From NCBI GenBank assembly GCA_964455675.1, contig CAYVYK010000008.1, positions 1 to 64,000 on the forward strand: a stretch of DNA of 64,000 bases. Reading direction: 5' to 3'. This document shows positions 6,217 through 60,164 of the stretch, in pieces. The DNA comes from an uncultured Methanosarcinales archaeon. Its GTDB lineage: Archaea > Nanobdellota > Nanobdellia > Woesearchaeales > CAYVYK01. Made by a program: the position numbers and the translations under genes. Under the pieces are notes generated by a model, which was not told where the DNA came from, ran no database searches, and was given only the letters and a program-made list of their open reading frames with translations. The stretch's first letter is position 1. Every line of letters begins with the position of its first letter.

Positions 6217-6290
6217 TGGACCAGTCGGGATTTGAACCCGAAGTCTCTCCCATGCCATGGGAGCGCGATACCGGATTACGCTACTGGCCC
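6217..6290 (-). tRNA. trnA: tRNA-Ala(GGC)
   Basis: GGGCCAG/CTGGTCC acceptor stem with G3:U70, CTCCC-AT-GGC-AT-GGGAG anticodon arm, TTCAAAT T-loop. Confidence 0.95.
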
Positions 6291-39838: not shown

Positions 39839-40486
39839 TTACACCGGTCGCTTCTTGAAATGGTGCGGATTCTTCTCAATAAGCCTCTGAATGATGCTGT
39901 CAAAGATGTACGACCTCGTCCGATACTTCATGTACAGAAATCCGATCGCGCTGACGACGAGAGCGCCCACGGCATCAACAATCAAGTCAAACATGGTGTC
40001 AACAAGACCGCTCTTCTGCATGTTCAAGCCAAGCGAGCGGTCAAGGATGAACTCAACGATTTCCCACACGGCACCAATCGCGAGCGCAAACGCAAATGAG
40101 AACAAAGCGACAAAACTTGGGGCCATCTTGAGACGGATATGCTTCTCCTGGTTGAGCATGTAAATCAACATGAAACCAACTATACCAAGAAGAAAACCAG
40201 AGCTCAGATGGAGCATGATGTCCCACCACCAGAAGCGGTAGTAATACCCCTGGAAATCCCCGAGAAAGAATGACAGAAAGATGAAAATAATCGTCGCTGC
40301 CTCAATCTCCATCGGGAGGTACAAGTGGAATTTCGTGCGAAAAATGAAAGGGAGATATGTTAGGAAGAGAATACCTGCAATCAAAATGGCATGCAGATAC
40401 TCCTTGCGAAACAAGGAATAACAAATACCAAAGAATAGAATGGCCTGCAGCGTGTAGAGGAAGAGTTTCTGAATATACTTGAGCAT
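39839..40486 (-). CDS. Membrane protein (DUF2238/YjdF-like, possible intramembrane metal site)
   Basis: WWD..LH, WE..EF and DTM.DL motifs in TM helices. Confidence 0.75.
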   Translation of the reverse strand: MLKYIQKLFLYTLQAILFFGICYSLFRKEYLHAILIAGILFLTYLPFIFRTKFHLYLPMEIEAATIIFIFLSFFLGDFQGYYYRFWWWDIMLHLSSGFLLGIVGFMLIYMLNQEKHIRLKMAPSFVALFSFAFALAIGAVWEIVEFILDRSLGLNMQKSGLVDTMFDLIVDAVGALVVSAIGFLYMKYRTRSYIFDSIIQRLIEKNPHHFKKRPV

Positions 40487-40597: not shown

Positions 40598-41863
40598 TCA
40601 CTTTTTCTGCGGATCCAAACCTGCAATAAAGACCCGATCATCTTGCCTAATTTGGATACCATCAAGAGCATCAAGGAAATCCTTATCCGACCATCCTGAT
40701 CCTTTGCAGTGCTTGTGGATGAGATCCAAGGGGAATTTGCGTTTACAATACATCTCATCAAGAAAATCATGCCCCCACTGACGCTGGATATCATTAGTAC
40801 GAAGAACTGACGCTGTCTGTTCGCCGCCAGATTGGGTACCACCCAGTTCGGAACCATCCGAGGTACGGGATCTTGAAGATTTCCAGTGCACGATGACGAG
40901 CGCGAATACAATCACCAGAACGAGAGGAACAGCGAGCACGAGGATCAACGAAGCAAGCTCCAGATGCTTCGAGGGGACAGGCTCACTTGGCATGGGCTGC
41001 TCCATATCCGGCAGTCCGACAGAAAACTGCAAGGAACCAATACCACTACTACCAATACCTGCATACGTGACCTTCAGAAGGTAAGAGCCTGGAAGCATAT
41101 CGGGGCGGAGGGCAATAACTTTTCCAAACGAAGAAGTCATATTCCGAAACTCACTCTCGAAAAAGATCACCTCGTTATCTAAATTCACGATTGAATAGTT
41201 GAAGGTCAGCAGCATAGGTTCCACTAACTGATCAATCGTCACGGAAAAATCAAGATTAGCACCAGGAACAAGAATATCCCCATTCCCCTTGCGAGTGATC
41301 TCAAGCACACTGTACGAACTCGTTGGCACAACATCAATCACGAGCGTCAAGAGTGTCGTGTATCCCTTACCTTGCACGGTGAAAGGAATCGAGTATATTG
41401 AGGATCCAGCCGCATCCTCTGGAACAGCCACCACCACATCAAGTGGCTGGCTTGAGTTACGCGGAATTGAAATGGACTCAGACGACATCATTACTCCATT
41501 TGGCAGGGACGCATTGATCATAACATCAATTGTCTGGCCAAAGAAGTTTGCTACACTCACCGGAACACGCATTGAATCACCCGGACGCATGACAAGCTTC
41601 ACATAATTGGGAAAGAGAAGAATATGCCCTCCGCTATACGTCGCAAGACCTGTCGCTCCACCTCCACCCGAGGATGAACCCGAGGAACCGGCAGGGGTCT
41701 CCACACGACGCTCAATATGGATACTTGTCCCGGTCACAGCATACCCCGTAATATCCGCAAACATGTAACCTGAGAAGAAAATCATGCATACAAAAACACA
41801 TGATACAACAACCGCCACAATCTTAGGATGATCACTCCTAAGGCTTTGCAGGGGGCGAGTCAT
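40598..41863 (-). CDS. Membrane-anchored Ig-like surface protein
   Basis: N-terminal TM + ITGYAV, two beta-sandwich domains, C-terminal TM and cytoplasmic GW domain. Confidence 0.7.
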   Translation of the reverse strand: MTRPLQSLRSDHPKIVAVVVSCVFVCMIFFSGYMFADITGYAVTGTSIHIERRVETPAGSSGSSSGGGGATGLATYSGGHILLFPNYVKLVMRPGDSMRVPVSVANFFGQTIDVMINASLPNGVMMSSESISIPRNSSQPLDVVVAVPEDAAGSSIYSIPFTVQGKGYTTLLTLVIDVVPTSSYSVLEITRKGNGDILVPGANLDFSVTIDQLVEPMLLTFNYSIVNLDNEVIFFESEFRNMTSSFGKVIALRPDMLPGSYLLKVTYAGIGSSGIGSLQFSVGLPDMEQPMPSEPVPSKHLELASLILVLAVPLVLVIVFALVIVHWKSSRSRTSDGSELGGTQSGGEQTASVLRTNDIQRQWGHDFLDEMYCKRKFPLDLIHKHCKGSGWSDKDFLDALDGIQIRQDDRVFIAGLDPQKK

Positions 41864-42506
41864 GAGAAGCTTCTTCCTCAATCTCCTTCTTTAACTTTTC
41901 CAATTCACGCTTCTTATCATCAATAGAAGGTTTTCTACGCTTCATGATCAAAATGATGATCAATCCGATAACAGCCACGAGCAAGATTACGGCCCACAGC
42001 AATGTGAGATCACGACCCTCAGCAACACATTTCACACGGAGCCTGAGCGGCACGGAAACACCAAGGCTCGTAGCTGAGCCAGTACCACCAGGACCACCCT
42101 CTTTTACCTCCTGCGCATTCACACTGCCCTCAAACACCTGCTCCTCCAACGAGCATGATTGCTTGCATAGATAGTCAGCAACCATACACTCCTTCGCATA
42201 CACTGTTGGAACCATAAAACATAGCGTGATCGGCATCGAATTATTGTGAGGAGTATTTGCTGGGACTAACTTTTCCTCGCTATCAACACTTGTGGCAACA
42301 CCCGAAAGTTCAGGAGATAGGGATAGCTTCACGATTACGTCTTCATCCCAGGGATTATAGATTCCATACGGGATGCAGACCTCCTGATTCTCGTTTACAA
42401 TCACGGACTCCCGGTCCCATGAGATACCCACACCTTTTCGTGCTTCAACTGGGACAACAAGCACCACAAGCAACAAACATAGCATAAAGAAATAAGACTT
42501 TTCCAT
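41838..42506 (-). CDS. Secreted, C-terminally anchored Ig-like protein (candidate pilus chaperone/anchor)
   Basis: Signal peptide, beta-sandwich with Gly-rich loop before SLGVSVPLRLRV, TM and basic tail. Confidence 0.65.
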   Translation of the reverse strand: MEKSYFFMLCLLLVVLVVPVEARKGVGISWDRESVIVNENQEVCIPYGIYNPWDEDVIVKLSLSPELSGVATSVDSEEKLVPANTPHNNSMPITLCFMVPTVYAKECMVADYLCKQSCSLEEQVFEGSVNAQEVKEGGPGGTGSATSLGVSVPLRLRVKCVAEGRDLTLLWAVILLVAVIGLIIILIMKRRKPSIDDKKRELEKLKKEIEEEASHDSPPAKP

Positions 42507-42507
42507 C

Positions 42508-43083
42508 TTACGAGCACCCCGTTCCCGTCGGCACACCTTGGAGGTATACCGTGTTATTGTAGGTACCCGGAGCTTGAGACGCGCTAACGTTCAACCAGAA
42601 ACGATAGAAATTCGATGTTCCAGCCGCCACGTTCGTACGACCCTTGATGTACATGGTTGACATGTTCTTGTACCCACCCGCTGGAGTTGGCGTCGTAAGA
42701 TTGGTATTGTCCGCATCCTTCCATGTGTAGTTACCAAGGAGGATACTATCACCGCCAGAGGAGTTCATCAAACTTGCTTTCACGCAGAAGTCAACAGGGC
42801 GGTTAGAATCATTCGAAATCGTAATATAATAAGCGGAGGCGTTTGGAGCATAATTTACTGTTGCGTTGTGATAAATGGCAGGCAAAGAGCTTATTGATCC
42901 AAAATTGATGCCATTCGTCAAATTAGACGACAGAGAGAGCGACACATAATTGCTAATGACAACTTCCGATGTGGTGGTGGAAATTGCATGACCAGTCGGA
43001 GTACTTACGGACCTGACAAGCATTGCAGAACTTAACAGGATGATCACGCCAAAAAACGCCATCACCATGTTCAGTTTGTTCAT
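42508..43083 (-). CDS. Small secreted beta protein (candidate major pilin)
   Basis: Signal + PTGHAI; INFG; FWLNV..SQAPGTYNNTV. Confidence 0.75.
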   Translation of the reverse strand: MNKLNMVMAFFGVIILLSSAMLVRSVSTPTGHAISTTTSEVVISNYVSLSLSSNLTNGINFGSISSLPAIYHNATVNYAPNASAYYITISNDSNRPVDFCVKASLMNSSGGDSILLGNYTWKDADNTNLTTPTPAGGYKNMSTMYIKGRTNVAAGTSNFYRFWLNVSASQAPGTYNNTVYLQGVPTGTGCS

Positions 43084-43162
43084 TCTCGGCCCTTCGAGGG
43101 ATTATACCTCCAGCCTTATAAAAATGTTTGGGAAATTTGATGTCACTGCCTCATGCAATCCC

Positions 43163-46100
43163 TCAAGGGTTTGTACCATGAGGCACACCCTTGATGGAAA
43201 CGCTGTTATTATACGTACCAGCGGGCTGGGACGCGGGAATTGAAAGGAAAAACTTGAAGTAAACATACGAACTTGTAGGAAGGTCGTCCCCAACCAGTAC
43301 ATAGGATGTAGTGAGGGGTATCTTACTAGCATTGCTGACATTTGGATTCGTGGTGCTCACACTAAAGGATTCATTTGAGAGCCGAATGTAATCCTCATCA
43401 GGCGTTGAAAGATTGGACAATCCCTTGATATAGACATCGACCCCAACACCCGTCGTCTGGATGGCAACATCATACCCTGTGGGAGCCGTACCATTATTGC
43501 CAAGAGCAGAAGCGTTCACTACAGGAATACTTGCGATACTCCAGGTGATACCCGAGCCAAGAGCATCGGAGAGCGAAATGCTAATCGCCTGTTCCGTGTC
43601 AATCGAGAAGTTTCTCACCGCAGATGATGAGTAATTGATAGTATCATTAGCCAGCACCTTCCAGAAATAGGTCATGTTATCCGCAAGCGGAGCCAGGATT
43701 GTATAATTGTGAGTAGTGATATTGTTCCTGCTGAAATTATACCAGGCGAAGGAGGCAGAAGTTGACAATAGCAAGGTGTAGTTGACACTATCGCCATCGC
43801 TATCCACAACGGATGACCAGTTGAGGAAAGGGGTCGTATCACCAGCTACAAATCCCGCGGAAGGCGAGAACAGGGTTACAATCGGAGGAGGAGTATTGAT
43901 CGTGAAGGTCCTCGTTACGGAGGTATTTGTGTGATTCATGACGTCCCAGCAGGACACATTCCAGTGCCAAGTGCCACGAGCAAGCAGATTGATCGTCATG
44001 TTCCTCCAAGACGCATTTGTGACCTCAAGATTTGTCGCGTTCCTTGAGCCATTCAGAGTTAGGTTGCACGTCAGGGGTGAGGAGAAGTCATCAGTCACCG
44101 ACCAGTTGAACGTGACGTTCCGAATGAGGATTTTGGATGATAATGGCGAATTCAGCTCGATCTTCGGTGCGGTCACATCCGGCTCACTCGTCGTAAATGA
44201 CCATTGGGAGGAAGTGTTCACATTGCCTGCAGCATCCCAACATGAAACTTTCCAGGTGTGCGTTCCAGTCAGGAATCCAGACACTGAGAAATTCCTCCAG
44301 GAATCATTCGTTGCTGCAATATTTGATGCATTTACGACGCCATCGATCGTCAGATTACAGGTTTGCATTGCTTCCACACTATCTACCAGGGTCCAATTGA
44401 AGAGCATGGACGCTGTATACCATCTCGAATCGTTTGAAGGGCTGACAAGCTCGAGATTTGGGGCGACGGTGTCAATCGTCACCTCACGCAGAGCTGTCTG
44501 GTTCATATTAGCACCCTCATCAACGATGAAGGACTGGAACGTATGTACACCCTCATCCAAGGAGGAATAGTTATTCCTGAATCTACCGGCTGAAGCGTCG
44601 TAGAGCGCTTGAACTTCAAAGGCAGAAAGGGTTCGATTCATGATGATCAACTCATCAATCGTCCCATTCCACAAAAAGTTCGTCGTGCTATACGCTCCGA
44701 TCTTGCTCGTCTTACGGTCGACAGCGATGCTCGTTTGAATAGATTTCGTCTCATTCAGAGCACCGTTAATATACAGTTTCACAGACTTATTCGTGTAATT
44801 ATGCGCCAAAGAGATCAAGTACCATCTGTCCTTCCCCAGGTTAGTGTTGAAGCTTGTGGACTGAGCTGCTGTACCATTGGTCCACTGCCACCAAACATCA
44901 CCATTAAGGAGATAGAACCAATGATACCCAACCGTATTGGACTGGGTACCAAGAGTGTAGACCGTACGGTACGACGTGATATTCCTAGCAAAGACCCAAC
45001 CGCTCACGCTGATCGCGCTGCTTGTGGAACTATTGCTCGCGATATTTACATAGCTATTTGTGAGTCCACTGAAGGAGAAAGCATTCCCAAACTTCCCAGT
45101 GCTACCAGCAGTGACTGTGCCAACAACGGATCCATTGCGACCATTACCAGACCAGTCATATATGCGTGTCGCGTTCTCTCCTGCGCTCGCTTTATTATCA
45201 AATCTCCACCATCCGACGAGCGAGTTGTCAAAGTTGGTTAAGCCGTACATTCTGCTTGCGTCTGTTGCGGTTACGTTAACCTCGATGTGGTTGCGACTCC
45301 TGGTTGAGGCATTAGATGGAGTGAGGCCAGTATAATCGATATGCGGACCCAAAGTGTCATTCACCGTAAATGTTGTCGATGCAGTGTTGATGTTGCCTGC
45401 AGTATCGTTCGCCCAGATGTTCATTGTGTACGCGCCAAACGCAGTGATATTGGTTAGCGTAGAGAGGTTGAGATCACCAGATGCAGATGTTCGACTGAGG
45501 AGGAGAGAATTATTCGGGTATGTCACATTAAAATTTACCACAGATAATGCAGCATCTGTTGCGGACCAGTTGATGCGAAGGCTTCTTTCATACTCCACCC
45601 ACGATAGATTCTTTCCCAAGAGGACAAGGGGGAGCGATGCGTCAAGTGTTACCTCCCACTCCTCAGTTTGGTTTCTATTGCCCGCCGCATCCACCGCATA
45701 GCTTCTGAAGGTGTGAATTGTACTCGAGAGACCGCTTATGTTAGCCTGGAATCTACCTTCGCTTGCATCATACAATGCCCCGATCTCATCAGCGGTAAGT
45801 GATCGGTTGAGCACGACCACTTCATCGATCGCACCGTTGAAATCATACTCGCGCACGGTCTCAGATATGTAGTAGTGAGTCGCTCCAATGGTAAAGTTCG
45901 AGCCATTCGTCGGGAGAATGGCTCCACTTGACACGTTGAGATTATCAAGTGTGCCGTTGATGTACAACATGATCATTGTTCCATTATAAACAGCCGCGAA
46001 ATGATACCACTTGCTAAGATCAGCGGCACCAAACGTTTTAGTGCTGTACACCTCCTTTGTTGTTGGCCCCGCAATACTGAAATGGAGTCTTCGCCCGCTT

Positions 46101-49100
46101 CGGCTTGTAGTCGTTAAACTTGAGTTTACAATTTGCACCTGCCAAAGACTCGATGATAAACCAAATTGACCAGAGAAAAAACCGAAATCACCAGGACCTA
46201 CTGATCCACTATTGTCCATCTCCATGCGGGGGTACGGCGCCGGGAATGTGTGTCCAAAATATTTCGCCAGAATCCCCTGGTCCATGGCGTCTACTGTTCC
46301 GTCCTCATTAAGATCCGAAGCAAGTGACTTTCCATTGCGTACGAGAGGGAAATAATACCTTCCTACACTATCAAGTCGGAACCATCCTGCGATCGTGATT
46401 GTTCCAGTCATATCCATGGTTTCCCCGGTTATCCCCTCGAGATAGTCCTCTGTACCGTCAAAGTCGTATGCGCCACCGAACCTCCCACTCGTCAGCAGGG
46501 TTGGATTTCCCTGCACCGTGAGATTGTTACCCATGCCGCTCCAATCAAATATCCGTGTCGTATTCTCACCAGCACTCGCGTCATTATCCATACTATACCA
46601 TCCGATAAGACTGTTGTCCAGGTTGGTGAATCCATACACAGCACTTGCATCGTTCACGCTTACGTTGGTGTACACCCAATCTTGATTGTGAGTTGTTCCG
46701 TTTGATGGAGTGATCCCTGAATAACTGATGGCAGGGCTAATCGTATCATTCACTGTGAATACTGCACTTGACGTGTTCACATGACTGACAGAATCATTCG
46801 CCCAGATGTTCATCGTGTACGTGCCGAGAATTGTGATATTATTAATCGTCGAAAGATTAAGGCTTCCTGACGAAGAAGTCCGACTGATGAAGAGGGATCC
46901 ATTAGGCCACGTGATATTGAACTTTGTCACGGATAACGAGACATCGGACGCAGTCCAGTTGAGGCGGATGGACCTTCCATACTCCACGAGCGAAAGATTC
47001 TGACCAATAACCAGTTTTGGCGCGATGGAATCAACAAGGTACGATACGTTCCGAACAGTGCTCTTGTTCTGCAGATCCCACATACTGCACCGCACGTACT
47101 CAGTTCCCTCAGAGGAGGACGCTGAAAACGAACAGGTCGCACTGTAGGGCGAAGGCCTATCAGCAAAGTTACCGCTTGTGCAGATAGTTTTGCTCATGTT
47201 CGGTGTGCACGAATTGGTCGTACCCTTGCAGCAGAGCATCTGCAGGATGTCGCCATCAGTATCTCCGGGTGATATGGCAGTAATTGTGACCGCTGAGCCC
47301 GGAGCAGGCGCGGAATCATTCACACTTATTGAAGTGAGCGTGGGCACTGTGTTCGTCGGCAGGACCGGATTGAAACTTCCTGGGAAGAGCGCGATATCGC
47401 ATCCCGTGAATTCAGAGAGGGCAGAGTTGATGTTCACATCCTCAGATACTTTCGTTGGTGTACCCCAGCTCTTCGTCGCATAGGTGAAGGGGATTGTGTA
47501 CAGGTCCACGTCGTCATCATCAACATAACAGAGTAGGGCATTACCCCATGAATCAACCGCAACTGAATACATCGCTCTGGAGTTCACATCAGCTGACGAA
47601 CCAACGTCCACACCCGCACCAGACCAAGATGTACCATCATAATAGGAATACTCAAGATTGTACAAGGAGTCCTCCCAGACGGCCATGCAGGTTCCATTGC
47701 TACCACAGCCGATTGTTGGGCCATTGCTTGAACAGATATTGCCTACAGTATCAAGCGCGGTGATCGTTCCCCAGCCGCGATTCCACTCCCTCACGTACAC
47801 TGGATCTCCCGACGCGGTGTAGTTACTCCATATGAGCCAGGCTTTACCGACGTCATATGCCGCAAGTGTCGGAAAACCAGCAATTCCTGTCCCAGGGTGC
47901 GAGAGCGTAATCCTTCCACTTTCATTCCAAGCAGCCCCGTTATAATAGAAGTACAGGTAGGAATCTTGATCGGTGTCGTCCTCCCGAACGACCGCGAGCG
48001 CAGTACCATCTCCCAGGTACGTGACCGCCGGAGCAGTATCACCATTTTCTGCGTCGAACGCTGTGGGATTAGTAATCTCGCTAAATGCGCTCCATGTTGC
48101 TCCCTTATCAGTACTGATTGAAGCAAACAGGCCTTCCGTTGCAGTACTTGGACCGACCATGATGGAATTGTTATTATACATATCAACCGCAAGAGATGAG
48201 CTACTCAGGGCAAACGATGTACCATCATCATAATCAACCCACTTACCGCTACTGCCGTTGTAATCCCATTGGTAACCATAGGTATTCGCGTCACCACGTT
48301 TACCTGTGATTATACCCCAACCCCAGGGATTCAGAGCAAGCGAAGGGGAATTAAGATTTGCTTCTTCAGAGTACTTGCTCAGGTTCTTCGTGACAAAATT
48401 ATCTATCCAGGTGGAACCGCTCGTATTCGTAACCGCAAACCGCGGCATATAACGGCCAGTAGAATAATTATTCGGGCTGTTGTCATCACTGATCCACGCG
48501 ACCATGGCCTTATTAATGGTTGTATTACCCAGGGGAGTATAATTTCCTAGAGGTATGGAGGGATCAATGATGTAGTCCAACTCCACTGTACCATTGACCC
48601 GCAAATCAAATACCGCATGGCTCTCAGTCGAGGGCATCCCTTCCAAAAACATTTTATACGTCCCGGGCGCGGTTATGCTCTCAAATTCGGCAAATTCGGC
48701 ACTTTGATCTTCTGCAAAAACAGTAATTGACGCCGTTGCGTTACTTCGCGCAACAAGAGTGATATCGTTCGTTTTGGTCAGATTGCGCTCAAATGTGATC
48801 CGTACATACTCACCATCATGGATAATTGGGCTCCAATTACCGTCCTGTGCAAATACATAACCATAGATATCCTGAATGAATGTCCTATTGCTATTGAGGT
48901 GTGCAGCTTGGGTGATTTCAATGATCACCTCATACGTCTGATTTGATAAGTGAGGCACGATCCACTCAACTGTGTCAATGATACCGTTGCTATTGGAATC
49001 AGTATACGTGATATCTTGCAGTTTCAAACGATAGAAGCCATTGTCCAACTCGACCGTATCAAACCCATCGGGCGTTTCGATCATCACTTCCCCCTCAAAT

Positions 49101-50833
49101 TGACCGGTGAATTCCCGATACTCTTGCTCGTTCAGGATCCAGTACACGCCAACCTGCTCATTCGTCTCCCTTGGCAGACTCGTGTGCGCAACAATGTTCT
49201 CATACCTGATATCTGAGAAGATCACAACCTCCTTTTTCTCGAGGGACAGATTGCGCTCAACACTCTCAGGGCCTTTGGTAGTGAAGTTAATCTCAATCGA
49301 GATGTTGCCGAGGGATTCATTCGACAGATTCATACCGGATGTAACGTTCTGAATTAGAATAGGTAATTCATCAGGGAGCATGTCTAGCCGACGTTCACGC
49401 ACCATGTCCCGCTGCATATTTCTAAGATCATTCTTCAACTCCCTGATCTCGTTCTGAAGATTTTTCTTGTCCTGTTTTGAGGCGGAAGCAAGCTGAACCT
49501 GCAGGTCAGTTAGCTCTTTAAGGGCTGGTTTTGCATCGATGGAATACCAGGAATCATTACTTAACACCAAAATATGCTTATTTTCTATCGCCTGTTTCAA
49601 ACCAACAGATCTTTTGCTCGCGGAAATATTCGTTGCCGAGATCGGGAGAGCTATCTCAATCGTCTCATTTCTCGTATGAATCGTTTTCTTCCAGTGGACC
49701 GGTTTATGAAGCTTGACCGCAGAGAGCAACTTCACACCATCGTTTGACTCATTACTCGTGACGCTAAGGTTTTCCGTCGCAATGGCAATGCCTTCATATT
49801 CATTTAGGAAAATGGGGACCGTTATTTGTACCGTATACTCTGCATCTGACGCAAAGAGAGTTATCTCATCCACTCTCGAGTCACTCCCAAGATACCTAAT
49901 CAGCAAACGATCACGGAAGACATCAACATACGTTTCCATCGGCTGGGTTGCCAGGAACGTCAGATTATCATGCTCAGGATCGAGAGCATAGCTTGACAGG
50001 TTCATGGTCAGGTTACCAGTCACAGTAATATTTGTCAGATTACTCCAGACTGGAGGATCATTCACCAGAACCTCGGTATACAAAACTTCATTAAGATACA
50101 GAACGGATGAGGGTCCAAGATGCACACGAAGGGAATACTCGCCACCGGATAAACTCAGCGCGCAAGAATCTCTGCAAACAGCCCTGAATTCCAGCGGAAC
50201 CTCAATACCAGGTTCTGAAACCAAGATTGGATTTTGTTGTGGATCCGCTGGCTCCGGGTTGATGGTCTCCTCGGGATTCTCAGTGCTTGTGGGAATTACC
50301 TCTGGAGGGGGCACTACCTCTGAGGGAATCTCCAAAGGCTCGGATACTACTTGAGTAGATTCGGGAACTGAAAGAGCAGGTTCCATTGATGGCTCTTTAG
50401 ACGGTTCCTGCATATTTTCTGGAACACTTGGTTCGCGAGGCTCAATCGTAGATTCATCGATATTTGGAATATCAAAAGACTCCTCACTATTGCTAGAGTC
50501 TGGTAAGTCTGCAATAGCGAGAGCCACTACTTCTGGTTCATTCGACTCTTGCCCGGACGTCGAGAACACCAAGAATTCCTGATCACCGCTCAAGAGATAC
50601 ACATCCCCTTGCCCGATGATGCTTCCGGAAATACTCAGTGATGATATCGGACCGGATATTGCCAAATCATACGCGCTGTCTTCGGTAAATGTCACATCCA
50701 GCGGTAGCGATATCAATGATTCAGATACAACAAGCCCAGTTAATCCAGACCGTAACACCGATCCACCAAGAATGACCCCAAGGATTATCCCGAGGAGGAA
50801 CAATCGGTAGCGCACAAGCCGAAACTCAGCCAT
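43163..50833 (-). CDS. Giant surface adhesin, 2556 aa (beta-propeller, 2 LamG, Ig repeats, dockerin-like insert, C-terminal pilin-like domain)
   Basis: Asp-box STDKGATW; LamG motifs L.GW..D, G.FG.A..F, W.H..., FNG.IDE; many N-X-S/T sequons. Confidence 0.85.
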   Translation of the reverse strand: MAEFRLVRYRLFLLGIILGVILGGSVLRSGLTGLVVSESLISLPLDVTFTEDSAYDLAISGPISSLSISGSIIGQGDVYLLSGDQEFLVFSTSGQESNEPEVVALAIADLPDSSNSEESFDIPNIDESTIEPREPSVPENMQEPSKEPSMEPALSVPESTQVVSEPLEIPSEVVPPPEVIPTSTENPEETINPEPADPQQNPILVSEPGIEVPLEFRAVCRDSCALSLSGGEYSLRVHLGPSSVLYLNEVLYTEVLVNDPPVWSNLTNITVTGNLTMNLSSYALDPEHDNLTFLATQPMETYVDVFRDRLLIRYLGSDSRVDEITLFASDAEYTVQITVPIFLNEYEGIAIATENLSVTSNESNDGVKLLSAVKLHKPVHWKKTIHTRNETIEIALPISATNISASKRSVGLKQAIENKHILVLSNDSWYSIDAKPALKELTDLQVQLASASKQDKKNLQNEIRELKNDLRNMQRDMVRERRLDMLPDELPILIQNVTSGMNLSNESLGNISIEINFTTKGPESVERNLSLEKKEVVIFSDIRYENIVAHTSLPRETNEQVGVYWILNEQEYREFTGQFEGEVMIETPDGFDTVELDNGFYRLKLQDITYTDSNSNGIIDTVEWIVPHLSNQTYEVIIEITQAAHLNSNRTFIQDIYGYVFAQDGNWSPIIHDGEYVRITFERNLTKTNDITLVARSNATASITVFAEDQSAEFAEFESITAPGTYKMFLEGMPSTESHAVFDLRVNGTVELDYIIDPSIPLGNYTPLGNTTINKAMVAWISDDNSPNNYSTGRYMPRFAVTNTSGSTWIDNFVTKNLSKYSEEANLNSPSLALNPWGWGIITGKRGDANTYGYQWDYNGSSGKWVDYDDGTSFALSSSSLAVDMYNNNSIMVGPSTATEGLFASISTDKGATWSAFSEITNPTAFDAENGDTAPAVTYLGDGTALAVVREDDTDQDSYLYFYYNGAAWNESGRITLSHPGTGIAGFPTLAAYDVGKAWLIWSNYTASGDPVYVREWNRGWGTITALDTVGNICSSNGPTIGCGSNGTCMAVWEDSLYNLEYSYYDGTSWSGAGVDVGSSADVNSRAMYSVAVDSWGNALLCYVDDDDVDLYTIPFTYATKSWGTPTKVSEDVNINSALSEFTGCDIALFPGSFNPVLPTNTVPTLTSISVNDSAPAPGSAVTITAISPGDTDGDILQMLCCKGTTNSCTPNMSKTICTSGNFADRPSPYSATCSFSASSSEGTEYVRCSMWDLQNKSTVRNVSYLVDSIAPKLVIGQNLSLVEYGRSIRLNWTASDVSLSVTKFNITWPNGSLFISRTSSSGSLNLSTINNITILGTYTMNIWANDSVSHVNTSSAVFTVNDTISPAISYSGITPSNGTTHNQDWVYTNVSVNDASAVYGFTNLDNSLIGWYSMDNDASAGENTTRIFDWSGMGNNLTVQGNPTLLTSGRFGGAYDFDGTEDYLEGITGETMDMTGTITIAGWFRLDSVGRYYFPLVRNGKSLASDLNEDGTVDAMDQGILAKYFGHTFPAPYPRMEMDNSGSVGPGDFGFFSGQFGLSSSLWQVQIVNSSLTTTSRSGRRLHFSIAGPTTKEVYSTKTFGAADLSKWYHFAAVYNGTMIMLYINGTLDNLNVSSGAILPTNGSNFTIGATHYYISETVREYDFNGAIDEVVVLNRSLTADEIGALYDASEGRFQANISGLSSTIHTFRSYAVDAAGNRNQTEEWEVTLDASLPLVLLGKNLSWVEYERSLRINWSATDAALSVVNFNVTYPNNSLLLSRTSASGDLNLSTLTNITAFGAYTMNIWANDTAGNINTASTTFTVNDTLGPHIDYTGLTPSNASTRSRNHIEVNVTATDASRMYGLTNFDNSLVGWWRFDNKASAGENATRIYDWSGNGRNGSVVGTVTAGSTGKFGNAFSFSGLTNSYVNIASNSSTSSAISVSGWVFARNITSYRTVYTLGTQSNTVGYHWFYLLNGDVWWQWTNGTAAQSTSFNTNLGKDRWYLISLAHNYTNKSVKLYINGALNETKSIQTSIAVDRKTSKIGAYSTTNFLWNGTIDELIIMNRTLSAFEVQALYDASAGRFRNNYSSLDEGVHTFQSFIVDEGANMNQTALREVTIDTVAPNLELVSPSNDSRWYTASMLFNWTLVDSVEAMQTCNLTIDGVVNASNIAATNDSWRNFSVSGFLTGTHTWKVSCWDAAGNVNTSSQWSFTTSEPDVTAPKIELNSPLSSKILIRNVTFNWSVTDDFSSPLTCNLTLNGSRNATNLEVTNASWRNMTINLLARGTWHWNVSCWDVMNHTNTSVTRTFTINTPPPIVTLFSPSAGFVAGDTTPFLNWSSVVDSDGDSVNYTLLLSTSASFAWYNFSRNNITTHNYTILAPLADNMTYFWKVLANDTINYSSSAVRNFSIDTEQAISISLSDALGSGITWSIASIPVVNASALGNNGTAPTGYDVAIQTTGVGVDVYIKGLSNLSTPDEDYIRLSNESFSVSTTNPNVSNASKIPLTTSYVLVGDDLPTSSYVYFKFFLSIPASQPAGTYNNSVSIKGVPHGTNP

Positions 50834-51317
50834 GAGCTCCCTCCATAGTCTTATGCAAGCGGTACTTCACCGTGTACACTGTCTTCACACTTAACCTGAG
50901 GGCTTTAGCAATATCCTTCGCTGACCATTTCCTCAGGAATAGCAAATAGCCGACAAGCGCTTCCTCAGCGGAGCACTTCTGATCACGGAAAATCATCACC
51001 GGAATGAATGAATCGGTCTCTTTGGCCTTTAACGCAAACGGCAGCTTCGCACGCGCATTGAGGCATGATGCACGGATGTTGCGCTGATCTCTCGCGAGTA
51101 GCGACGCAATTGTCGTGTAGCGCAGATGCTCATTCTCGCGAAGGTATTTGCATACAGCTTCGAGTGGTGTGAGACCGTATGAAAACACAGACAGAGGAAT
51201 CAGGTATGTCTTTTCCGCCAGACGAAATACGCTCGTCAGCGGCACTTTCTCCTTGAGCAAAAAGTCTAGCAAGAGAACATCATGATCCCTGTTCATATGC
51301 GCATTACTGTAATCCAC
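50826..51317 (-). CDS. Tandem HTH DNA-binding protein
   Basis: Two repeats IP...F....S.LEA...YL......IA..L; overlaps the adhesin start. Confidence 0.7.
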   Translation of the reverse strand: MDYSNAHMNRDHDVLLLDFLLKEKVPLTSVFRLAEKTYLIPLSVFSYGLTPLEAVCKYLRENEHLRYTTIASLLARDQRNIRASCLNARAKLPFALKAKETDSFIPVMIFRDQKCSAEEALVGYLLFLRKWSAKDIAKALRLSVKTVYTVKYRLHKTMEGAHG

Positions 51318-51476: not shown

Positions 51477-52217
51477 GTGACAAGGACTCTCTACTCTGAT
51501 GTGGACGGCACACTCATCCACAGAGATGAAAGCGCCCAATCATTCCGGATCCTAGGAGGTTTTGGCATAACCCGCGGAGCTATCAAGCTTCTTTCCCAGA
51601 TACGGCAGCACATGCAGATCACCCTTGTTACCGGGCGAACACAAGAGAAATATGCTCTCGTATCAAAACTTATCCCTCACGACACTGCAATCCTTGAACA
51701 TGGATGCCTCGTCCTCTCTTCAGGCAACATCGACCAAGAATGGTATGCTGCGCTTCGCGTCGATGGATTACTTCGAGACTATGAAGCATACCTCCAAGGA
51801 TTAGGGTATCAGACCGACAGCAGAGGAAGACTTGCGAGCTTTCGGGTCTACCGCGATTTACCGCACACACTCACCGAAGAAGAGAAACAAACCATCGAAG
51901 GATTACCTCGACCTATGGAACTCGTACCCGTACGTAATATGAGTTTCCTTGATTTTATCCCTGCAGCCGGAGGAAAATCACATGCGATCAGATATGTTGA
52001 AGGAAAGACAAAATCTCGCGAATCCTTTGGCTTTGGTGACGATTACAACGACCTGGAAATGCTCGCGCTCGTGACGCACCCAATCACTCTTGGCTCCGCA
52101 AAACCAGAAGTACAACACGCCGTGGCGGCGCGCGGAGGATACGTGGCACGCGGCGGGTATCACACAGGGACAATCGAAGCATTGACGTATATTCTGAATA
52201 CTTGTCACCACGGATGA
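51477..52217 (+). CDS. HAD-IIB (Cof-like) phosphatase
   Basis: DVDGT, TGR, K..A and GDDYND motifs. Confidence 0.85.
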   Translation: MTRTLYSDVDGTLIHRDESAQSFRILGGFGITRGAIKLLSQIRQHMQITLVTGRTQEKYALVSKLIPHDTAILEHGCLVLSSGNIDQEWYAALRVDGLLRDYEAYLQGLGYQTDSRGRLASFRVYRDLPHTLTEEEKQTIEGLPRPMELVPVRNMSFLDFIPAAGGKSHAIRYVEGKTKSRESFGFGDDYNDLEMLALVTHPITLGSAKPEVQHAVAARGGYVARGGYHTGTIEALTYILNTCHHG

Positions 52218-52274
52218 GACGCCAAGCACAAAGCTTGCGTCCTCCATTACGAATCGGAACGAAGGAGAAAAAAA

Positions 52275-52374
52275 NNNNNNNNNNNNNNNNNNNNNNNNNN
52301 NNNNNNNNNNNNNNNNNNNNNNNNNNNNNNNNNNNNNNNNNNNNNNNNNNNNNNNNNNNNNNNNNNNNNNNNNN
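52275..52374. other. Scaffold gap (100 N)
   Basis: Run of N. Confidence 1.
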
Positions 52375-52375
52375 A

Positions 52376-52496
52376 CGCCGGCGCCCAGATTTGAACTGGG
52401 AAATCCTTTCGGAAACAAGCTCACTTCACTCACGTTCGGGACTTGCCCGAGTGCAAGTTTCCAGGCTTGCGCAGTACCAGGTTGTGCCACGCCGGC
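52376..52496 (-). tRNA. trnS: tRNA-Ser(GGA) with 37-nt intron (52422..52458)
   Basis: GCCGGCG/CGCCGGC-G acceptor, CAAGC-CT-GGA-A[intron]A-GCTTG, long variable arm TCC-GAAA-GGA, TTCAAAT. Confidence 0.88.
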
Positions 52497-52549
52497 AACT
52501 AGCACGCTGAGGTTCAAGCTCCTTTTTAAAGGTTCTGAGAGATACAGCT

Positions 52550-55500
52550 TCAGGAAGAAGGCTTCATGTGCTTGTCCAGCTGTTCGTCCGTCCAGCCTGC
52601 CTTCTTCAGCTGCTCACGGATTTTCATTTCTGAGATACCGATTTTCCTCTGCTGCTGCAGGAATTTATGTAACGGATCAAACTGATGGCTGCGCACAATG
52701 AGCAGGGTTATGGATGAGATGATGATAATACCAAACGCAGAGGCCATCAGCAACAGAGGCGTATGGTCTCTCACCACATCAGGGACTTTTGCGAGCTCGA
52801 CGGTTCGGGGGCTTTCCTCACAAGGCTCACATGGACCGCCGCAGTCAATTGTCGTTTCGCCCTCATCAAGAAGACCGTTCCCACAGGAATCCTGTAATTG
52901 TTCCTCTGTGCAATTCTCATGATGGAACTCCTCATCGGAACCAGGTTCACAATGATTCATTTCCGTACAATTCCTTATGCGCGTGCCATTCACGCACTCG
53001 GACCATTCACTGCACGTCCAGTTGAACACGCACGGAGCAATCGTCGGAGTCGGAGGGACCCATCCCATCGCGGCGCCGCCGGACCTGCCACCAGAACCTC
53101 CACCAGGACTTCCACCACCAGGGGAGCCAGTATCACAGGACCCAAAACCTTCATCGATATTGCCGTCACAGTCATCATCAATACTATTGCAGGATTCCTG
53201 ATACAAACCCTGGTAGGAGTACTGATCGCACAGATCAGTGTGGAGTATACAATACTCACTCAGGGACATCGCGAACTCATTACTCTCATCAGTATAGACA
53301 AAGATCCCATGATTTGCGTTAAACCAATAGTCAACATTATCAAACAGTGTTTGTGCGGTCCAAATCGCAGGGCCCGTGCCATCATGATCAAAATCAGTGT
53401 ATTCACAGTAGGTCTCTCCTTCCGTGTCCCCAAGCATGCAATCACTCGATATACGATCAACTCGATAACAGTCCGGATCCGTGGTCCCCCAAATCCCTGC
53501 AACCTCAAAACCGCTCGTGAGGAATGGACCAAGCCGGGACGTACAATCAAAATAGGTGTCCTCGGTGATGAGGTTCTTTCCAAGTTGGTTAAACTCCTGA
53601 TATAGCAAATGAGGATAGTACACAGAAGTATTCATGGCGGGCAGATAGAAACTGGCCGTCCTCACTCCGCGCGTGGCGAGGGCGCCTGCAATCGCCGAAT
53701 GAACACTGTCGTAGATTTCATCGTCCGCATTCCAAATGGTATACCCTACCTTCGATCTGCTATCTGGCGCGTAATCCTCGGCGTCGAGTCCCGTGAGCGG
53801 AACACCAAGCTCGTTTGCCTCCTCGCGCAACCTCCTCAGGAACCACTCATAGTACTCAGCGTCGTGCACAATGCTTCCATCTGTGTACTCATCTTTAAAC
53901 GGCTGAGCGAAAGGCTGAGCGCTCACATTGCCATCCTGGAACCAGAGATCACGCCCCCAGATAGGAATCAATCCAGCATCACGGACTTCCTGAATAATAT
54001 GAGTATTCGGTTCTGAAGTTGGCTGTTCATTATAATCAAGATTACTGATGTAGACGTGGGTAACTAGGCCCGATGCTTTAAGAGAGGGGAAGATACTCGT
54101 GTCCTCACCCCACCGATGCATCCAGATGAAAACCTTCTCCGACGGAACTTGCGCACATGACGGCTCACGAGAACTCAACCCCTCAAGGGTTGTGAAGTTG
54201 TCAACAACGCCCCAGATGACTTCATGTTCAAGCTCCGCACCATTCGATGACCGAATCCTGAATTCGTAGTCGGTGTACTCTGTCAAATTATCAAGCAGCA
54301 AGCGGTGCGAAGTCACGAGCTCGGAACTCGCCACGATTCCATCGGGACCATCAGGGTAGCGCTCGGGATTTGGGGATTCCCACCAATACCCATTCGAGGT
54401 GTACGCAACTTCCGACGTGCTCGGATCAGCGGTAGTCCAGGAGATGTTCACTGCCGTTGAGTTGATGTGGATAACCGCAACATTATCCGGAAGGCGGAAC
54501 CAAGGGGCCTCCCAATCAACGTAGGGGTCAGCCGTGATTTCACCAGCAGCATACCGCGCTTTTACGACGTCATAAAACGGTTTGTACCAAGCCCAGGTAG
54601 CATAGGTTTTATCCACCGAATACACCCATCCATAGAGATTCTCACCAAGCACACGATGCAACTCTTGCCTTGAGATGGCAAGGCTTCGATTCTCTGGCAG
54701 AATCTCGGAACCATACACCTGCGACAATCCATACCCTGATGTGAAGTAACGCACGTAAGGATCATTTGGCGAATCCACCATCGCCATATCACCGGTCTCA
54801 CCGACAAGTGCATAATCAACGTATGCATCAATCATGACCGCCTTGAGTCCATTATATTCTGGATACGTGTCCCAAACATCAACGGACTCATGATGAATAA
54901 TGATCCCCTCATCACCCAGCTCTCTCCTAACTGTCTTAATAAACTCATAATTATCCGCAAGATTCCCAAAGTTGATACCCGCATTATCAAAATACCACCC
55001 GTCGAGGTCGTACTCCTCACGGAATTGCTCCATAACATAGAAGGTATCTGCGAGCGACTGACCAGTCGCGGGATATCCGGGGAATCCATTGCCATCAGGA
55101 TCAAAGCCAGGAGCACCGAAGTACGTAAGCACCTTAAGTCCATTCTCATGCGCAGTAGCGATGAATGCCTTTACCGCGGCAGGATCAGCATACTCATAAC
55201 CATACAGTCCTTCCCTTGCGATCCAAGGACTTACACCACTATCCATGATGGCGGGAAGATGCGAGATGGGTCCAGGCCGATTATAGAATGTACTGAACAG
55301 AAGGACCGCGCCAAAACCCTCATCACGATAACTCTGCATGTTGTCCACGATTCGCTCGAGTCCGTCAGGCGCGTAGGCAAAATACACAAACGGCTTTGTA
55401 TCCTCGCCGTAGAGGCCGTCAAAGTCAAACGGTTTTGGCGGGAAGACCATATGACCCATGCTCATTCCAGGGAAGAATCCAAAGGTTGTGAAGTCAGACG

Positions 55501-58500
55501 TTTGACCAAGCACAAGCGGAGCGCCGCTACTGAACTTTGCATGGAGCGAACCACCCAAACCATCCGTCCACATCCTATTAAGGTTGTCGTCCTCCCTTCT
55601 CCAGGTAGTATCCTCAATCAGATTCGTGTGTGTGTAGCCCATGACATTCAAGGCAGTTATCGAGAAGAAGGAATCGCTAAAAAACCTGAAGTCAGCTAGG
55701 TTCGTATGCACGGAAGCTTCAGAAGAATTCCAATCAGTAATGGATGGATCACCAAGGGGAGCGGTAAAATCGAGCCTGGCAACAAGCCTAGGGTTAATGC
55801 CATTTGTTGAGGGATCAATTTTTCTCCACATCTCCAAATCCGTGCTCGTGAGAACATATGTCGCACCAGTCGTCTCAATTGTTATCTCTCCCGTATCACC
55901 CACAACTGAGACAATCTCCATCCCAGATAGGATTTCATCGCATGGCACAACCGATACTGGCATCCCCGTAGTAGTACCACAGTCATTCTCATCAAACACT
56001 TCCCTCGTCCTTGCGCCTTCACTACAAGAACTCCATTCGCCCATCTGCCAGTCAGGAGCGCACTCACGCTCAACAATGGAAAGCGCATCCATCGGAATTG
56101 ATACTGTTTCTCCATTCCAACCAAATGTTAAACCATTCTGCTCGAAGGGATTATCGATCGCAAACAGAGTCACACCATCATTTGCTATGAAGCGGCGTAC
56201 TTCAACACCATCCGGAATGCTTGTGATACCTCTCGTACTACGATAGATTGGCTCTCTTGCCCACCAGTTGTGGGCAGTACGAAGCTCTATCGCATTGATC
56301 AGGAATTCGTTCGTCACTCCTCCATATGCCACGCCGGGACTATCAAACTTCGCGCCAAGAAGGAACGCCTGACGCTCAGCAAAATGATTATGAGCAGCGC
56401 CATAAAGATCGTACTCACCATTCTGATAGCCATAGAAGAGAATACGATCCCCAAGGAGGTATCTCCCAAAATCTGCCACGGTGATCCTGTCTGAATTCTC
56501 GACGGTATGACCTTCCTCCATCGCGATACTCCCACCACGAATGTTACCGCTGATCAGGAAGGCAGCCGGATAGACATCTTTTGCAAACTCAAGGACGGAC
56601 ATTCCTGGAAGCTGTGCCTTGATGATATTCGCGATGTCAAGTGGCGGACCAAAGTTCCTCGCCCCGAGCACATCGAGGTAGTACGCATTCGCGCCGTTTG
56701 CGGTGTGAACTGCAATCCACCCGATCAAGTACTCGAGCGGCGTTTCACTTTCGGCATCCCAATCGTCATACTCAGTCGTGTCCGTCAACTCATGATACTC
56801 ACCCCAGGAGTAGTGATTCAGCGGGCGGCTGTAGAAGCCAACAGTTGCTCCTTGAGCTTTGATAGCATCAATGTATGCAGGAAGATCAGCATAACGCGGA
56901 TGCAAGGTACGCTCGCCAAAACAACACCCCAGCCATTCACCCACCTCGAGCGGGGGAGTGCCTTCATAATCATCAGCAGGAGGAGTGATCCCATTCCATG
57001 GAACGTAGTCAAGGAAGTTCACAGGCTCAACTTGCCCATAATTACTCATCTGACCCCAGAACTGCAGCCAGGGAAGATAGTCCTTTGAAGACTGCCAATG
57101 AGAGTCGATCTCGGTTGTCGTGAACGCTGGTCGGTTCTGGAGATGGATCGCAAGCCATCCATTCGCAGACTTCAAGGAATCAGGATACTCTATAGGAAGA
57201 AGACCCTCAGAGGACATATGATCTCTCAGCCACGCATCGTACACATCGAGCGCCGCATGCCAAGGCTTGATGCCCTGCTCAGCATTACCCGCAACTTCCG
57301 CAATAAATGCATTGTACGTCTCAGATTCTCCGGGAAGCACGGCATCCTCATAGAGCAGACGCGACCTCTTAAAGCACGCCATTGGCTTTACCGTCCTTGG
57401 CGGCCAATTCGCGGCAGCCACGAGTTTTGCCTTCGTATCATCAGCAACAACATGCAGCGGAGCATACGTTACGTTCGGATACACCAAACCAGACCAGCCC
57501 CATGTTGTGACATCAAAAGTCGTCATCAATCGCGCAGTACCAAAAAGGTAGGTATCATAGAGCGTGTCATCCTCGGTTACTGAATCAAGCATATATTTGT
57601 AATACTCAAAAGGAAAATCAACACCCGTGATCGTCAGGCTCGGATGGATGTTCTGCAGCGTCAGAGACCACTCGTACTCACCCACCTGCTCGACCGTGGC
57701 GTCAATATAGGAATCATGATACGTGCGCACGGGACCTGGATTACCCGCGCTGTTCAGATAGTACACATGATTACCGTCGCTCAAGCGGATGTGAAAGGCT
57801 GGACCATACTCATCATAAGGATCCAATGGGAAGGAATCAACACCATCGGACCTCGCGTCATCGTCGGAATCAGCATCAAGAGGATCAGAATCAGCGTAAT
57901 ACTCCTCCAGGTTTACCAGCCTGTCACCATCAGGATCATCCTCGGCATCATAACTTGTGATTGCATCAAAGTGGTCCAACTCCCAGCTGTCGGGCAGACC
58001 ATCACCATCGGTATCACACGAAATAGGACAACTACCACCGCAGTCAATACCTTCCTCATCGCCGTCCTGGATGCCGTTGTTACAGTTTCCGTCCTCAGCG
58101 CTTAGATATTCAAACGCCCCAACGTCAGGCGCAGCACCATACCACTCCTTACAGTCCTCGCCTGGATGGGAACCAGCGGACTCGCAATGGTAACCGGCGA
58201 TAAACGAACCTGCATCAATCGCAGCGCTGCCAGAAGTGAGATGATAATCATTCAATCCGAGATCCACAAATCCAGGATCAGCAGAAAAAGTACTGCCATC
58301 AAGGAGAGGAACAGAACCATCATTCACCTCTGCGTTCGTGTAATGAAGACCATCATTCCAGTGGATGACCGGATCCAGCTCACGAAAGAGGATGTTGTTG
58401 CCTTCATCGACATACACGCATTCCGCAGTCGGACTTGGGCACGCTTGCGGACTCGTTGTCAAGGCACGATGCTCATTCTCGGGACCATAGATGGCATAGT

Positions 58501-60004: not shown

Positions 60005-60164
60005 CACGAGGAAAGTACCCGCATTGGTATATAAATAAGATTCCTCACAGCAGAGTGAATACCTACGCGTACCACAGATGAATCTCGATAGACGGATAGT
60101 GAATACAAAATACCGGATTAACAACTCCGCAAATTTATATACAAGAAACCACTGAAGTATCGAT

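Follow-up and report, generated by a model that had tools for sequence, protein, structure and literature searches.

A conserved gene cluster of DPANN archaea and the case for an usher-less, chaperone-type donor-strand fibre displaying a giant adhesin

DPANN archaea live attached to other cells, and how they hold on is largely unknown; to our knowledge, the mode of anchoring of their giant surface proteins is mostly unexplained as well. Here we describe a gene cluster that may bear on both points. It lies in a stretch of 64,000 nucleotides (positions 1 to 64,000 of contig CAYVYK010000008.1, assembly GCA_964455675.1), in the following called the window, from a genome of 1.72 Mb (completeness 99%) that was deposited under the name of an uncultured Methanosarcinales archaeon and that GTDB places in the Woesearchaeales. 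The sequencing data listed comprise two DNA runs, both of the same sludge-metagenome study, and no RNA data set. The cluster encodes a giant secreted protein that ends in the same domain of which the small secreted protein encoded next to it (p191) is made, and a membrane-tethered, chaperone-like protein (p232). A constant module under a variable adhesin, a matching subunit and a tethered chaperone-like protein would together provide a concrete assembly route. An earlier note on this DNA, made from the sequence alone, had proposed a pilus operon held together by donor strands.

The locus and its conserved neighbourhood

Five co-directional genes, tightly packed and all on the minus strand, span positions 40598-51317 of the window according to the calls of open reading frames (ORFs) (Table 1). 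In the direction of transcription they encode a helix-turn-helix (HTH) protein, the giant, p191, p232 and a further membrane-anchored protein, p427.

Table 1. Genes and candidate functional segments of the cluster (positions in the window; aa, amino acids; Ig, immunoglobulin)
Feature	Position	Strand	Remarks
HTH protein	50826-51317	-	163 aa; weak HTH matches at aa 124-154
Giant secreted protein, candidate tip adhesin	43163-50833	-	2556 aa; ORF and translation
C-terminal ~143-aa domain of the giant, candidate strand-acceptor module	43166-43594	-	
p191, small secreted protein, candidate major fibre subunit	42508-43083	-	191 aa: signal helix, extension, Ig-like sandwich
p191, candidate donor strand, aa 34-46, ISTTTSEVVISNY	42946-42984	-	column conservation
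p232, candidate membrane-tethered chaperone	41838-42485	-	called product 215 aa; longest ORF reaches 42536
p232, amphipathic strand, candidate chaperone donor strand	42030-42068	-	aa 140-152 of the 215-aa product
p427, candidate membrane-anchored base/terminator	40598-41881	-	divergent member of the fourth-gene family

The last 163 aa of the giant share 44 identities in 144 positions with p191 (31%, E 1e-12, BLASTP, single comparison), as the earlier note had seen for the last ~143 aa. With the profile of the p191 family the C-terminal domain of the giant is found at 1.3e-29, the match covering profile positions 43-191. A search of the whole genome located the shared domain at just two sites, namely the C-terminus of the giant and p191.

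Using an alignment of p232, 19 related loci (numbered with L below) were found when one genome per species was searched; all are in metagenome-assembled genomes (MAGs). Each of the 19 has a gene of the small-protein family next to the p232 gene. A large protein bearing the shared domain is encoded in 16 of the 19 (in 15 by hmmsearch, in L040 by other searches); these proteins range from 457 to ~3300 aa and carry the domain at the very C-terminus, except in L031. In L026 the large protein is encoded in the opposite orientation and close to the contig edge; upstream DNA is missing from L030 and L033, and the 3043-aa upstream frame of L042 has no detectable domain. The earlier note had proposed a synteny check and had named the lack of a conserved gene neighbourhood as one of two findings that would speak against its pilus; since the neighbourhood is conserved, this objection is removed.

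Within the same order the small-protein profile finds matches in 12 of 301 genomes (E<=1e-5). Four genomes (this one, G118, G214 and G001) have both a full-length small gene and a match that ends a frame of 1597 to 3376 aa. BLASTP on fetched regions gave the gene order giant, small, p232 for G118; in G214 the giant is followed by three tandem pairs of small and p232 genes. Relatives of p232 are present in 16 of 401 high-quality genomes sampled from the phylum. The genomes concerned belong to families of this order and also to other orders of its class, and the distribution is patchy.

According to the titles given by the depositors, the 19 loci are from Woesearchaeota, Nanoarchaeota and Aenigmatarchaeota, several from an 'uncultured archaeon' and three (L026, L027 and L034) from MAGs labelled 'uncultured Methanosarcinales archaeon', which agrees with the DPANN setting assumed from the beginning. 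The Methanosarcinales labels look wrong, because the contig of L027 belongs to G118, which is of the same order as the DPANN-type genome studied here.

A variant order is seen in L041, L042 and L043: large protein, p232-like protein, a gap and then a small-family protein of ~290 aa with ~100 cytoplasmic residues before the helix. Downstream of it follow extra secreted proteins of ~190-210 aa and other membrane-anchored Ig-like proteins.

The small protein, the giant and their membrane-anchored partners

An exhaustive HMMER search for the family of p191 yielded 279 cluster representatives at E<=1e-3 and 147 at 1e-10. Of 150 listed relatives most are 180-210 aa long, one group has ~270-300 aa and 7 exceed 500 aa; the forms of ~290 aa have the ~100 cytoplasmic residues ahead of the helix. 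A word-index search, which is weak evidence on this point, found no longer relatives of p191. The family is covered by no Pfam or NCBIfam family, and the PDB sequences contained nothing for p191 or its profile.

Unlike p191, the C-terminal domain of the giant has no signal peptide and no N-terminal extension. When 6 small proteins and 4 C-termini of giants, chosen by hand from four genomes, are aligned, the shared domain starts with YVSLSLS in p191 and with AISISLS in the giant. The small proteins have ~12 additional residues between the leader helix and the domain, whereas in the giants the residues before the domain are the end of the preceding one. Matches to the family profile accordingly start at position 1-9 in small proteins versus 32-49 in large ones. 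By both measures the extra N-terminal segment, which had been noted from p191 and the giant, is real. In an alignment of 86 family members the extension is as conserved as the core (S39 in 76/86, V/A41 in 84/86, I/V43 in 82/86 and Y/F46 in 70/86), and its pattern T-x-S-x-[V/A]-T-[I/V]-x-x-[Y/F] is alternating and amphipathic.

AlphaFold2 (AF2), supplied with the 86-member alignment, gave a model of p191 with a predicted local distance difference test score (pLDDT) of 93.9 and a predicted template modelling score (pTM) of 0.78. In the model a leader helix is followed by residues 25-48 without regular secondary structure and then by an all-beta domain. Most of the matches listed by Foldseek for this model are donor-strand pilins (Csu, TLP-1a/b, the Saci_0406 thread, CfaB, FimA, SafA, CupE, AbpA and TasA). 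Csu and TasA, which the earlier note had suggested as targets, are thus among the matches listed, but no PDB match had an E value <=0.001. GH123-type glycosidases also recur among the top matches. The predicted structure supports a pilin-like Ig fold of p191. An assignment to DUF4402 led nowhere (sub-threshold for p191, E 0.089; 2 of 86 family members at E>=0.003), and the idea that p191, p232 and p427 are mutual paralogues was rejected.

A maximum-likelihood tree was calculated from 45 domain sequences, comprising every domain that hmmsearch detected in the 19 loci and the two from the window. It divides 16 large-protein domains from 28 small proteins by a 100/100 branch, which makes the split into a 'tip type' and a 'shaft type' an old one. 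L034 also encodes a 1201-aa protein (P0040, L034:5544-9149), the gene of which is placed between those of the tip-type giant and the small protein. P0040 begins with a complete small-type domain including the extension and continues with a BNR/propeller-like region; in the tree it is the sister of the neighbouring small protein.

The giant starts with a hydrophobic helix, which is followed by a BNR-like region, two Laminin_G_3 domains (concanavalin A (ConA)-like lectin), Big_13/Ig-like spacers and the C-terminal pilin-type module. The Pfam matches behind this layout are Laminin_G_3 (5.3e-28, two stretches), Big_13, Sialidase N-terminal lectin and, sub-threshold, BNR_2. The protein ends with ...IKGVPHGTNP and has no C-terminal hydrophobic stretch; in this respect it was rightly described as lacking a C-terminal anchor, but there is the helix at its N-terminus, which may act as a signal peptide or as a signal anchor. 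The C-terminal ~250-480 aa have a homologous stretch in the large proteins of 17 of the 19 related loci. The payload in front of it is variable: among 9 large or fused proteins scanned with Pfam, a ConA-like lectin is present in this giant, L027 and L034, a beta-helix in L028 and L041 and DUF2341 in L036, and three others have no recognisable domain. The lectin-type domains suggest that the giant may bind to a host cell.

In p232 a signal peptide precedes a single Ig-like domain, which resembles PapD and may resemble DUF916. The Gly-rich loop and the long amphipathic strand lie ahead of a C-terminal membrane helix, and the protein closes with a short basic tail. In the AF2 model (pLDDT 86.4) the Ig-like domain extends from aa ~17 to 153 and the membrane helix from 161 to 184; the last two long strands, 116-126 and 140-152, flank the Gly-rich loop. 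The long alternating hydrophobic strand after this loop is SLGVSVPLRLRVK; model and alignment agree on both loop and strand, as they had been read from the sequence. The 15 relatives found are without Pfam family, and the two that are named are called 'hypothetical protein'. Aligned together with four copies from related loci (19 sequences), the family has a mean column identity of 50%, versus 29% for the small-protein family, six invariant Cys, the motif YGxYNPWDEDV and, immediately before the membrane helix, the invariant-rich GSATSLGVSVPLKLxVxC. In strand 140-152 residues P146, L147 and V151 are invariant, and G136, S137 and C153 flank it. With Foldseek the model had 97 matches at E<=0.001. 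A PapD-like domain came first (1e-5), and the others include complement MG domains, MSP domains and the pilus chaperone FaeE. The chaperones YadV and SafB are also among the fold matches, and the best solved structure was that of WxLIP. The p232 profile had no match among PDB sequences at E<=10. By analogy with the donor strand of ElrE (see below), strand 140-152 is a candidate for a chaperone donor strand.

p427 starts with an N-terminal helix, a short strand (TGTSIHIE) and a Gly/Ser linker. Two Ig-like domains come next, and after a membrane helix the protein ends in a cytoplasmic tail of ~85 aa. A word-index search gave no close homologue, and BLASTP gave no match in the 19 related loci. 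In 12 of the 19, a fourth gene is located directly downstream, the product of which (~450-520 aa, sometimes far longer) starts with a leader and an N-domain of ~170 aa, continues through a Pro/Gly-rich linker into Ig-like domains and ends with a membrane helix and a charged tail. With hhalign, p427 aa 65-283 align with this family (probability 96.4%, E 1.4e-9, 213 columns); the aligned region is the linker and the Ig part, and the N-domain of the family is absent from p427. Judged by this alignment p427 belongs, as a divergent member, to the conserved fourth-gene family, and profile homology is also what its Ig-like nature rests on. A 451-aa protein of L030 resembles p427 by eye in its N-terminal design. 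The claim of the earlier note that membrane-anchored Ig-like proteins are encoded downstream is therefore borne out, for p232 by model and alignment and for p427 by profile. We consider p427 a candidate for the base or terminator.

The stop of the HTH gene overlaps the start of the giant by 8 nucleotides, and in this locus the two are probably co-transcribed. The HTH protein had no BLASTP match at 1e-5 in any of the 19 related loci. Because the fourth gene is found downstream in 12 loci and p427 aligns with its family, the conserved core consists of four genes, and the HTH gene, which had been counted as the regulator of the cluster, is a local gene outside this core.

The N-domain of the fourth-gene family (~170 aa; L029:10585-11928 and homologues in 12 loci) has the motifs FDGxTTxF and CPxxxC. 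One of three members had a near-threshold Pfam match to Nup98 autopeptidase S59 (E 5e-6, 27.1 bits versus a cut-off of 28.4); a fibre anchor able to cleave itself would be of interest. Elsewhere in the genome the fourth-gene profile matches C15:15500-20521 (-) with E 6e-18 and C3:145372-146317 (+), at a contig end, with E 8e-7; neither has a small-protein or p232 gene near it.

Several features of the surroundings should be mentioned. A membrane protein of 215 aa encoded at 39839-40486 has no match in the 19 related loci. A second giant of 2524 aa (52550-60124, minus strand) adjoins the cluster. It contains repeated Cys-rich modules and, unlike the 2556-aa giant, carries at the C-terminus a membrane helix of its own and a cytoplasmic tail; its Cys-rich C-terminal part has short matches in proteins encoded downstream of p232 in L027 and L032. 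Bases are masked or undetermined at ~52200-52300, and the 179-aa frame at 51978-52517 reads ~34 X. The only Rfam match in the window is a tRNA-Ala (GGC) at 6217-6290 (-).

Many predicted secreted proteins of the genome (contigs C1-C18) carry the motif V/I-T-G-x-[A/V]-[V/I] a few residues past the N-terminal hydrophobic helix, in the window for example at 41740-41760 (p427) and 50720-50740 (giant). A pattern scan of the genome for this motif, first noted as 'ITGxA', flagged 27 ORFs, about half of which have the clear V/I-T-G-x-[AV]-[VI] form after the leader helix. Because of this spread over 27 ORFs the motif was rejected as a sorting signal specific for the cluster and is regarded as general for the lineage; it looks like a lineage-wide signal-peptidase or sorting feature.

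Assembly of a fibre or docking of an adhesin

We lean, if only slightly, towards reading the cluster as the genes of an archaeal donor-strand fibre of the chaperone type, built without an usher in the way reported for the WxL pili of Gram-positive bacteria (see below), on which the giant adhesin would be displayed. All products of the cluster would cross the membrane by the Sec route. p232 would remain tethered via its C-terminal helix, and its long amphipathic strand would supply, in the way ElrE/WxLIP does, what is still missing from the Ig fold of subunits that have just been exported. From the extension that p191 has and the giant lacks we infer an exchange of strands between subunits. The giant has an acceptor domain without a donor strand and would therefore start the fibre at its distal end as the strand-accepting tip; p191 would then polymerise to the shaft, p427 would be the membrane-anchored base, and the tip could bring the payload into contact with a host cell.

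Three observations favour the main rival, a non-polymeric surface-display complex: the ~100 cytoplasmic residues ahead of the helix in family members of ~290 aa, the three tandem pairs of small and p232 genes in G214, and the single domain of p232. In such a complex the shared domain would dock the giant and the small protein one to one on p232 or on each other. The adhesin would be fastened to the wall-less cell without a fibre, as in the older picture of a Csc/WxL 'cell-surface complex', and the cytoplasmic N-extension of the ~290-aa forms would suggest permanent anchoring. It would use the same conserved triad, and p232, far better conserved than its partners (50% versus 29%), would behave as expected of a common receptor. 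It has no role, however, for the conserved amphipathic extension of p191, which is precisely what the giant is without; a small protein consisting of the docking domain alone has no obvious use; and the Bacillota system behind the picture proved to be a pilus (bioRxiv 10.64898/2026.10.17.759780). We consider docking rather unlikely.

Readings other than fibre and docking complex appear improbable to us even when taken together. One is a self-assembling matrix fibre of p191 alone, of the TasA, AbpA, thread or cannula type and free of chaperones, to which p232 and p427 would be unrelated travellers. It is hard to reconcile with a p232 gene that is the neighbour of a small-family gene in all 19 loci and shares its duplication, with the chaperone-like fold of p232 (best solved match WxLIP), and with the acceptor-type C-terminal domain of the giant, which implies that the fibre has a tip and is no plain matrix polymer; we deem it quite improbable. 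That the products are unrelated surface glycoproteins sharing a generic Ig-like module spread by duplication, without physical interplay, would accord with the commonness of Ig-like folds and with fold scores that are all middling, but is highly improbable: the gene order is strict and the genes are adjacent in genomes from at least two orders, the two subfamilies are old and functionally split, and the domain occurs only twice in the genome, in neighbouring genes.

A literature search on DPANN and donor-strand assembly found nothing past a passing mention; no link between Woesearchaeota and WxL was found, nor was this type of adhesive fibre assembly found described for archaea. If the fibre exists, it would be the first chaperone-type pilus pathway in Archaea, and three protein families would be defined, none of which has a Pfam family today.

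Comparison with known fibre systems

As described, Sulfolobus threads, AbpA bundling pili, Pyrodictium cannulae and haloarchaeal Tat-dependent pili have no dedicated chaperone and no giant tip adhesin of the subunit fold, and none of them is from DPANN. The preprint on the Elr pilus likewise describes strand-donating pili of archaea as chaperone-free (bioRxiv 10.64898/2026.10.17.759780).

The chaperone-usher pili (Fim, Pap, Csu, CFA/I) have a tip adhesin that consists of a receptor-binding part and a pilin domain without N-terminal extension, as the giant would. The fold searches matched p191 with Csu, FimA, CfaB and CupE, among others, and p232 with FaeE, YadV and SafB. The cluster differs in that there is no outer membrane, that the candidate chaperone is membrane-tethered and single-domain, and that no sequence relationship exists. 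No gene for an usher-sized beta-barrel was noticed among the ORFs downstream of or beside the cluster, which were not subjected to a dedicated usher search.

The Pam pili of bacteria of the candidate phyla radiation (CPR) are made of the pilins PamA/B, the tip PamT, the membrane-anchored PapD-like chaperones PamC/D and the membrane-anchored terminator PamR; the pilins are reported to be exclusive to CPR (PMC13278184). By description, the likeness lies in an ultra-small organism of the episymbiont type, in Ig-like donor-strand pilins, in chaperones held by a C-terminal membrane helix, in the lack of a trans-envelope machine, and in a terminator that begins with a strand and has a membrane helix of its own. 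The differences are that Pam is bacterial, that its pilins and chaperones have two domains, and that PamT is a small single-domain tip, whereas the tip here would be a giant adhesin.

The closest known system to the archaeal cluster is the Elr/WxL (Csc) pilus of Enterococcus faecalis and other Bacilli. In October 2026 it was reported that the enterococcal WxL (elr) cluster builds a donor-strand pilus with a membrane-anchored chaperone (bioRxiv 10.64898/2026.10.17.759780). Its parts are the tip adhesin ElrA, the WxL pilins ElrD and ElrC, the chaperone ElrE, which is WxLIP (DUF916-DUF3324-membrane helix), and the LPxTG base ElrB (bioRxiv 10.64898/2026.10.17.759780; PMC10599100; PMC9772566). According to the preprint ElrD polymerises by donor-strand exchange via residues 1-15 (consensus [S/T]-x-[G/A]-x-[V/I]-x-F), WxL tip adhesins carry a variable payload over a constant C-terminal WxL module, rare adhesins have an N-terminal module predicted to enter the shaft, and the system is confined to Bacillota among 4,698 RefSeq genera. 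The analogy with WxL/DUF916 clusters drawn in the earlier note has become stronger, because these clusters are now reported to build donor-strand pili with a membrane-anchored chaperone, but membership by sequence is not borne out.

Pfam WxL (PF13731) has no match in the whole genome at E<=1, whereas 2-29 genes were found in each of 5 Enterococcus/Listeria genomes used as control, and none of the 86 small-family members was hit at E<=0.01. The dual Trp-x-Leu motif on adjacent C-terminal strands that marks WxL (PMC9772566) is absent, the consensus of the last two strands being YxRFWLDVP and GTYNNTVxFKG. WxLIP_PGBD (PF06030) has no match in this genome and none among the 19 p232 family members at E<=5; in the order it finds other proteins, weakly, in 28 of 301 genomes, 1 of them over the cut-off. 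Nor is there an LPxTG motif in p427 or its family, which end in a membrane helix and a charged tail.

For profile comparisons with hhalign, 28 small WxL and 29 WxLIP proteins from five Enterococcus/Listeria genomes served as references, and leaders and membrane helices were removed. The small family scored 18.2 against WxL (E 0.045; reversed control 9.9) and the p232 family 17.3 against WxLIP (E 0.088; reversed control 12.9). Since these scores are only slightly above the reversed controls and no better than the cross-control of the small family against WxLIP (17.3), homology to WxL and WxLIP is not shown. A 92% probability for p232 and WxLIP obtained at full length (26 columns) was an artefact, probably of signal and membrane helices, as after trimming E was 0.088. 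In the ESM Atlas p191 and p232 fall into unnamed archaeal clusters; the nearest named cluster for p191 is WxL (0.80), and WxLIP_PGBD is among the nearest for p232 (0.86), which we regard as leads only.

The likeness is one of design, and at this level the two correspond point by point. In both systems the variable payload of a large adhesin is followed at the C-terminus by a module whose homologue is a small secreted protein from a nearby gene. The small protein begins with an amphipathic extension, similar in pattern in the two systems and absent from the adhesin module, and the Ig-like partner combines a long hairpin strand with a membrane helix at its C-terminus. P0040 of L034, with module and extension at the N-terminus, parallels the rare 'internal adhesin' that the preprint predicts for one E. 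faecium WxL locus. The Elr system has no usher, and here none was noticed among the listed ORFs, although they were not searched for one. A minimal Elr operon is defined, in the preprint, by chaperone and pilin genes within 10 kb; their analogues, which are not Pfam-defined WxL/DUF916 genes, are adjacent in 19 of 19 loci. A candidate pilin with an amphipathic N-terminal strand and a homologous tip module without one, as in Elr, are also found, at the level of sequence. The differences are the DPANN archaeal setting without peptidoglycan and, although no search aimed at it was made, without sortase, a candidate base that is membrane-anchored rather than LPxTG-linked like ElrB, and the one Ig domain of p232 as against two in WxLIP, both proteins having the membrane helix. 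We would say that the cluster probably works like the Elr/WxL system and do not file it as a member.

It could be asked whether the cluster is a true, very remote homologue of both WxL/Elr and CPR Pam rather than convergent with them. Tethered-chaperone donor-strand pili would then be ancient, or horizontally shared, among wall-poor, ultra-small cells of both domains, and the DPANN fibre with its lectin-rich giant tip would be an organ of host capture. We consider this doubtful, but it is the widest form that the comparison with Elr and Pam could take.

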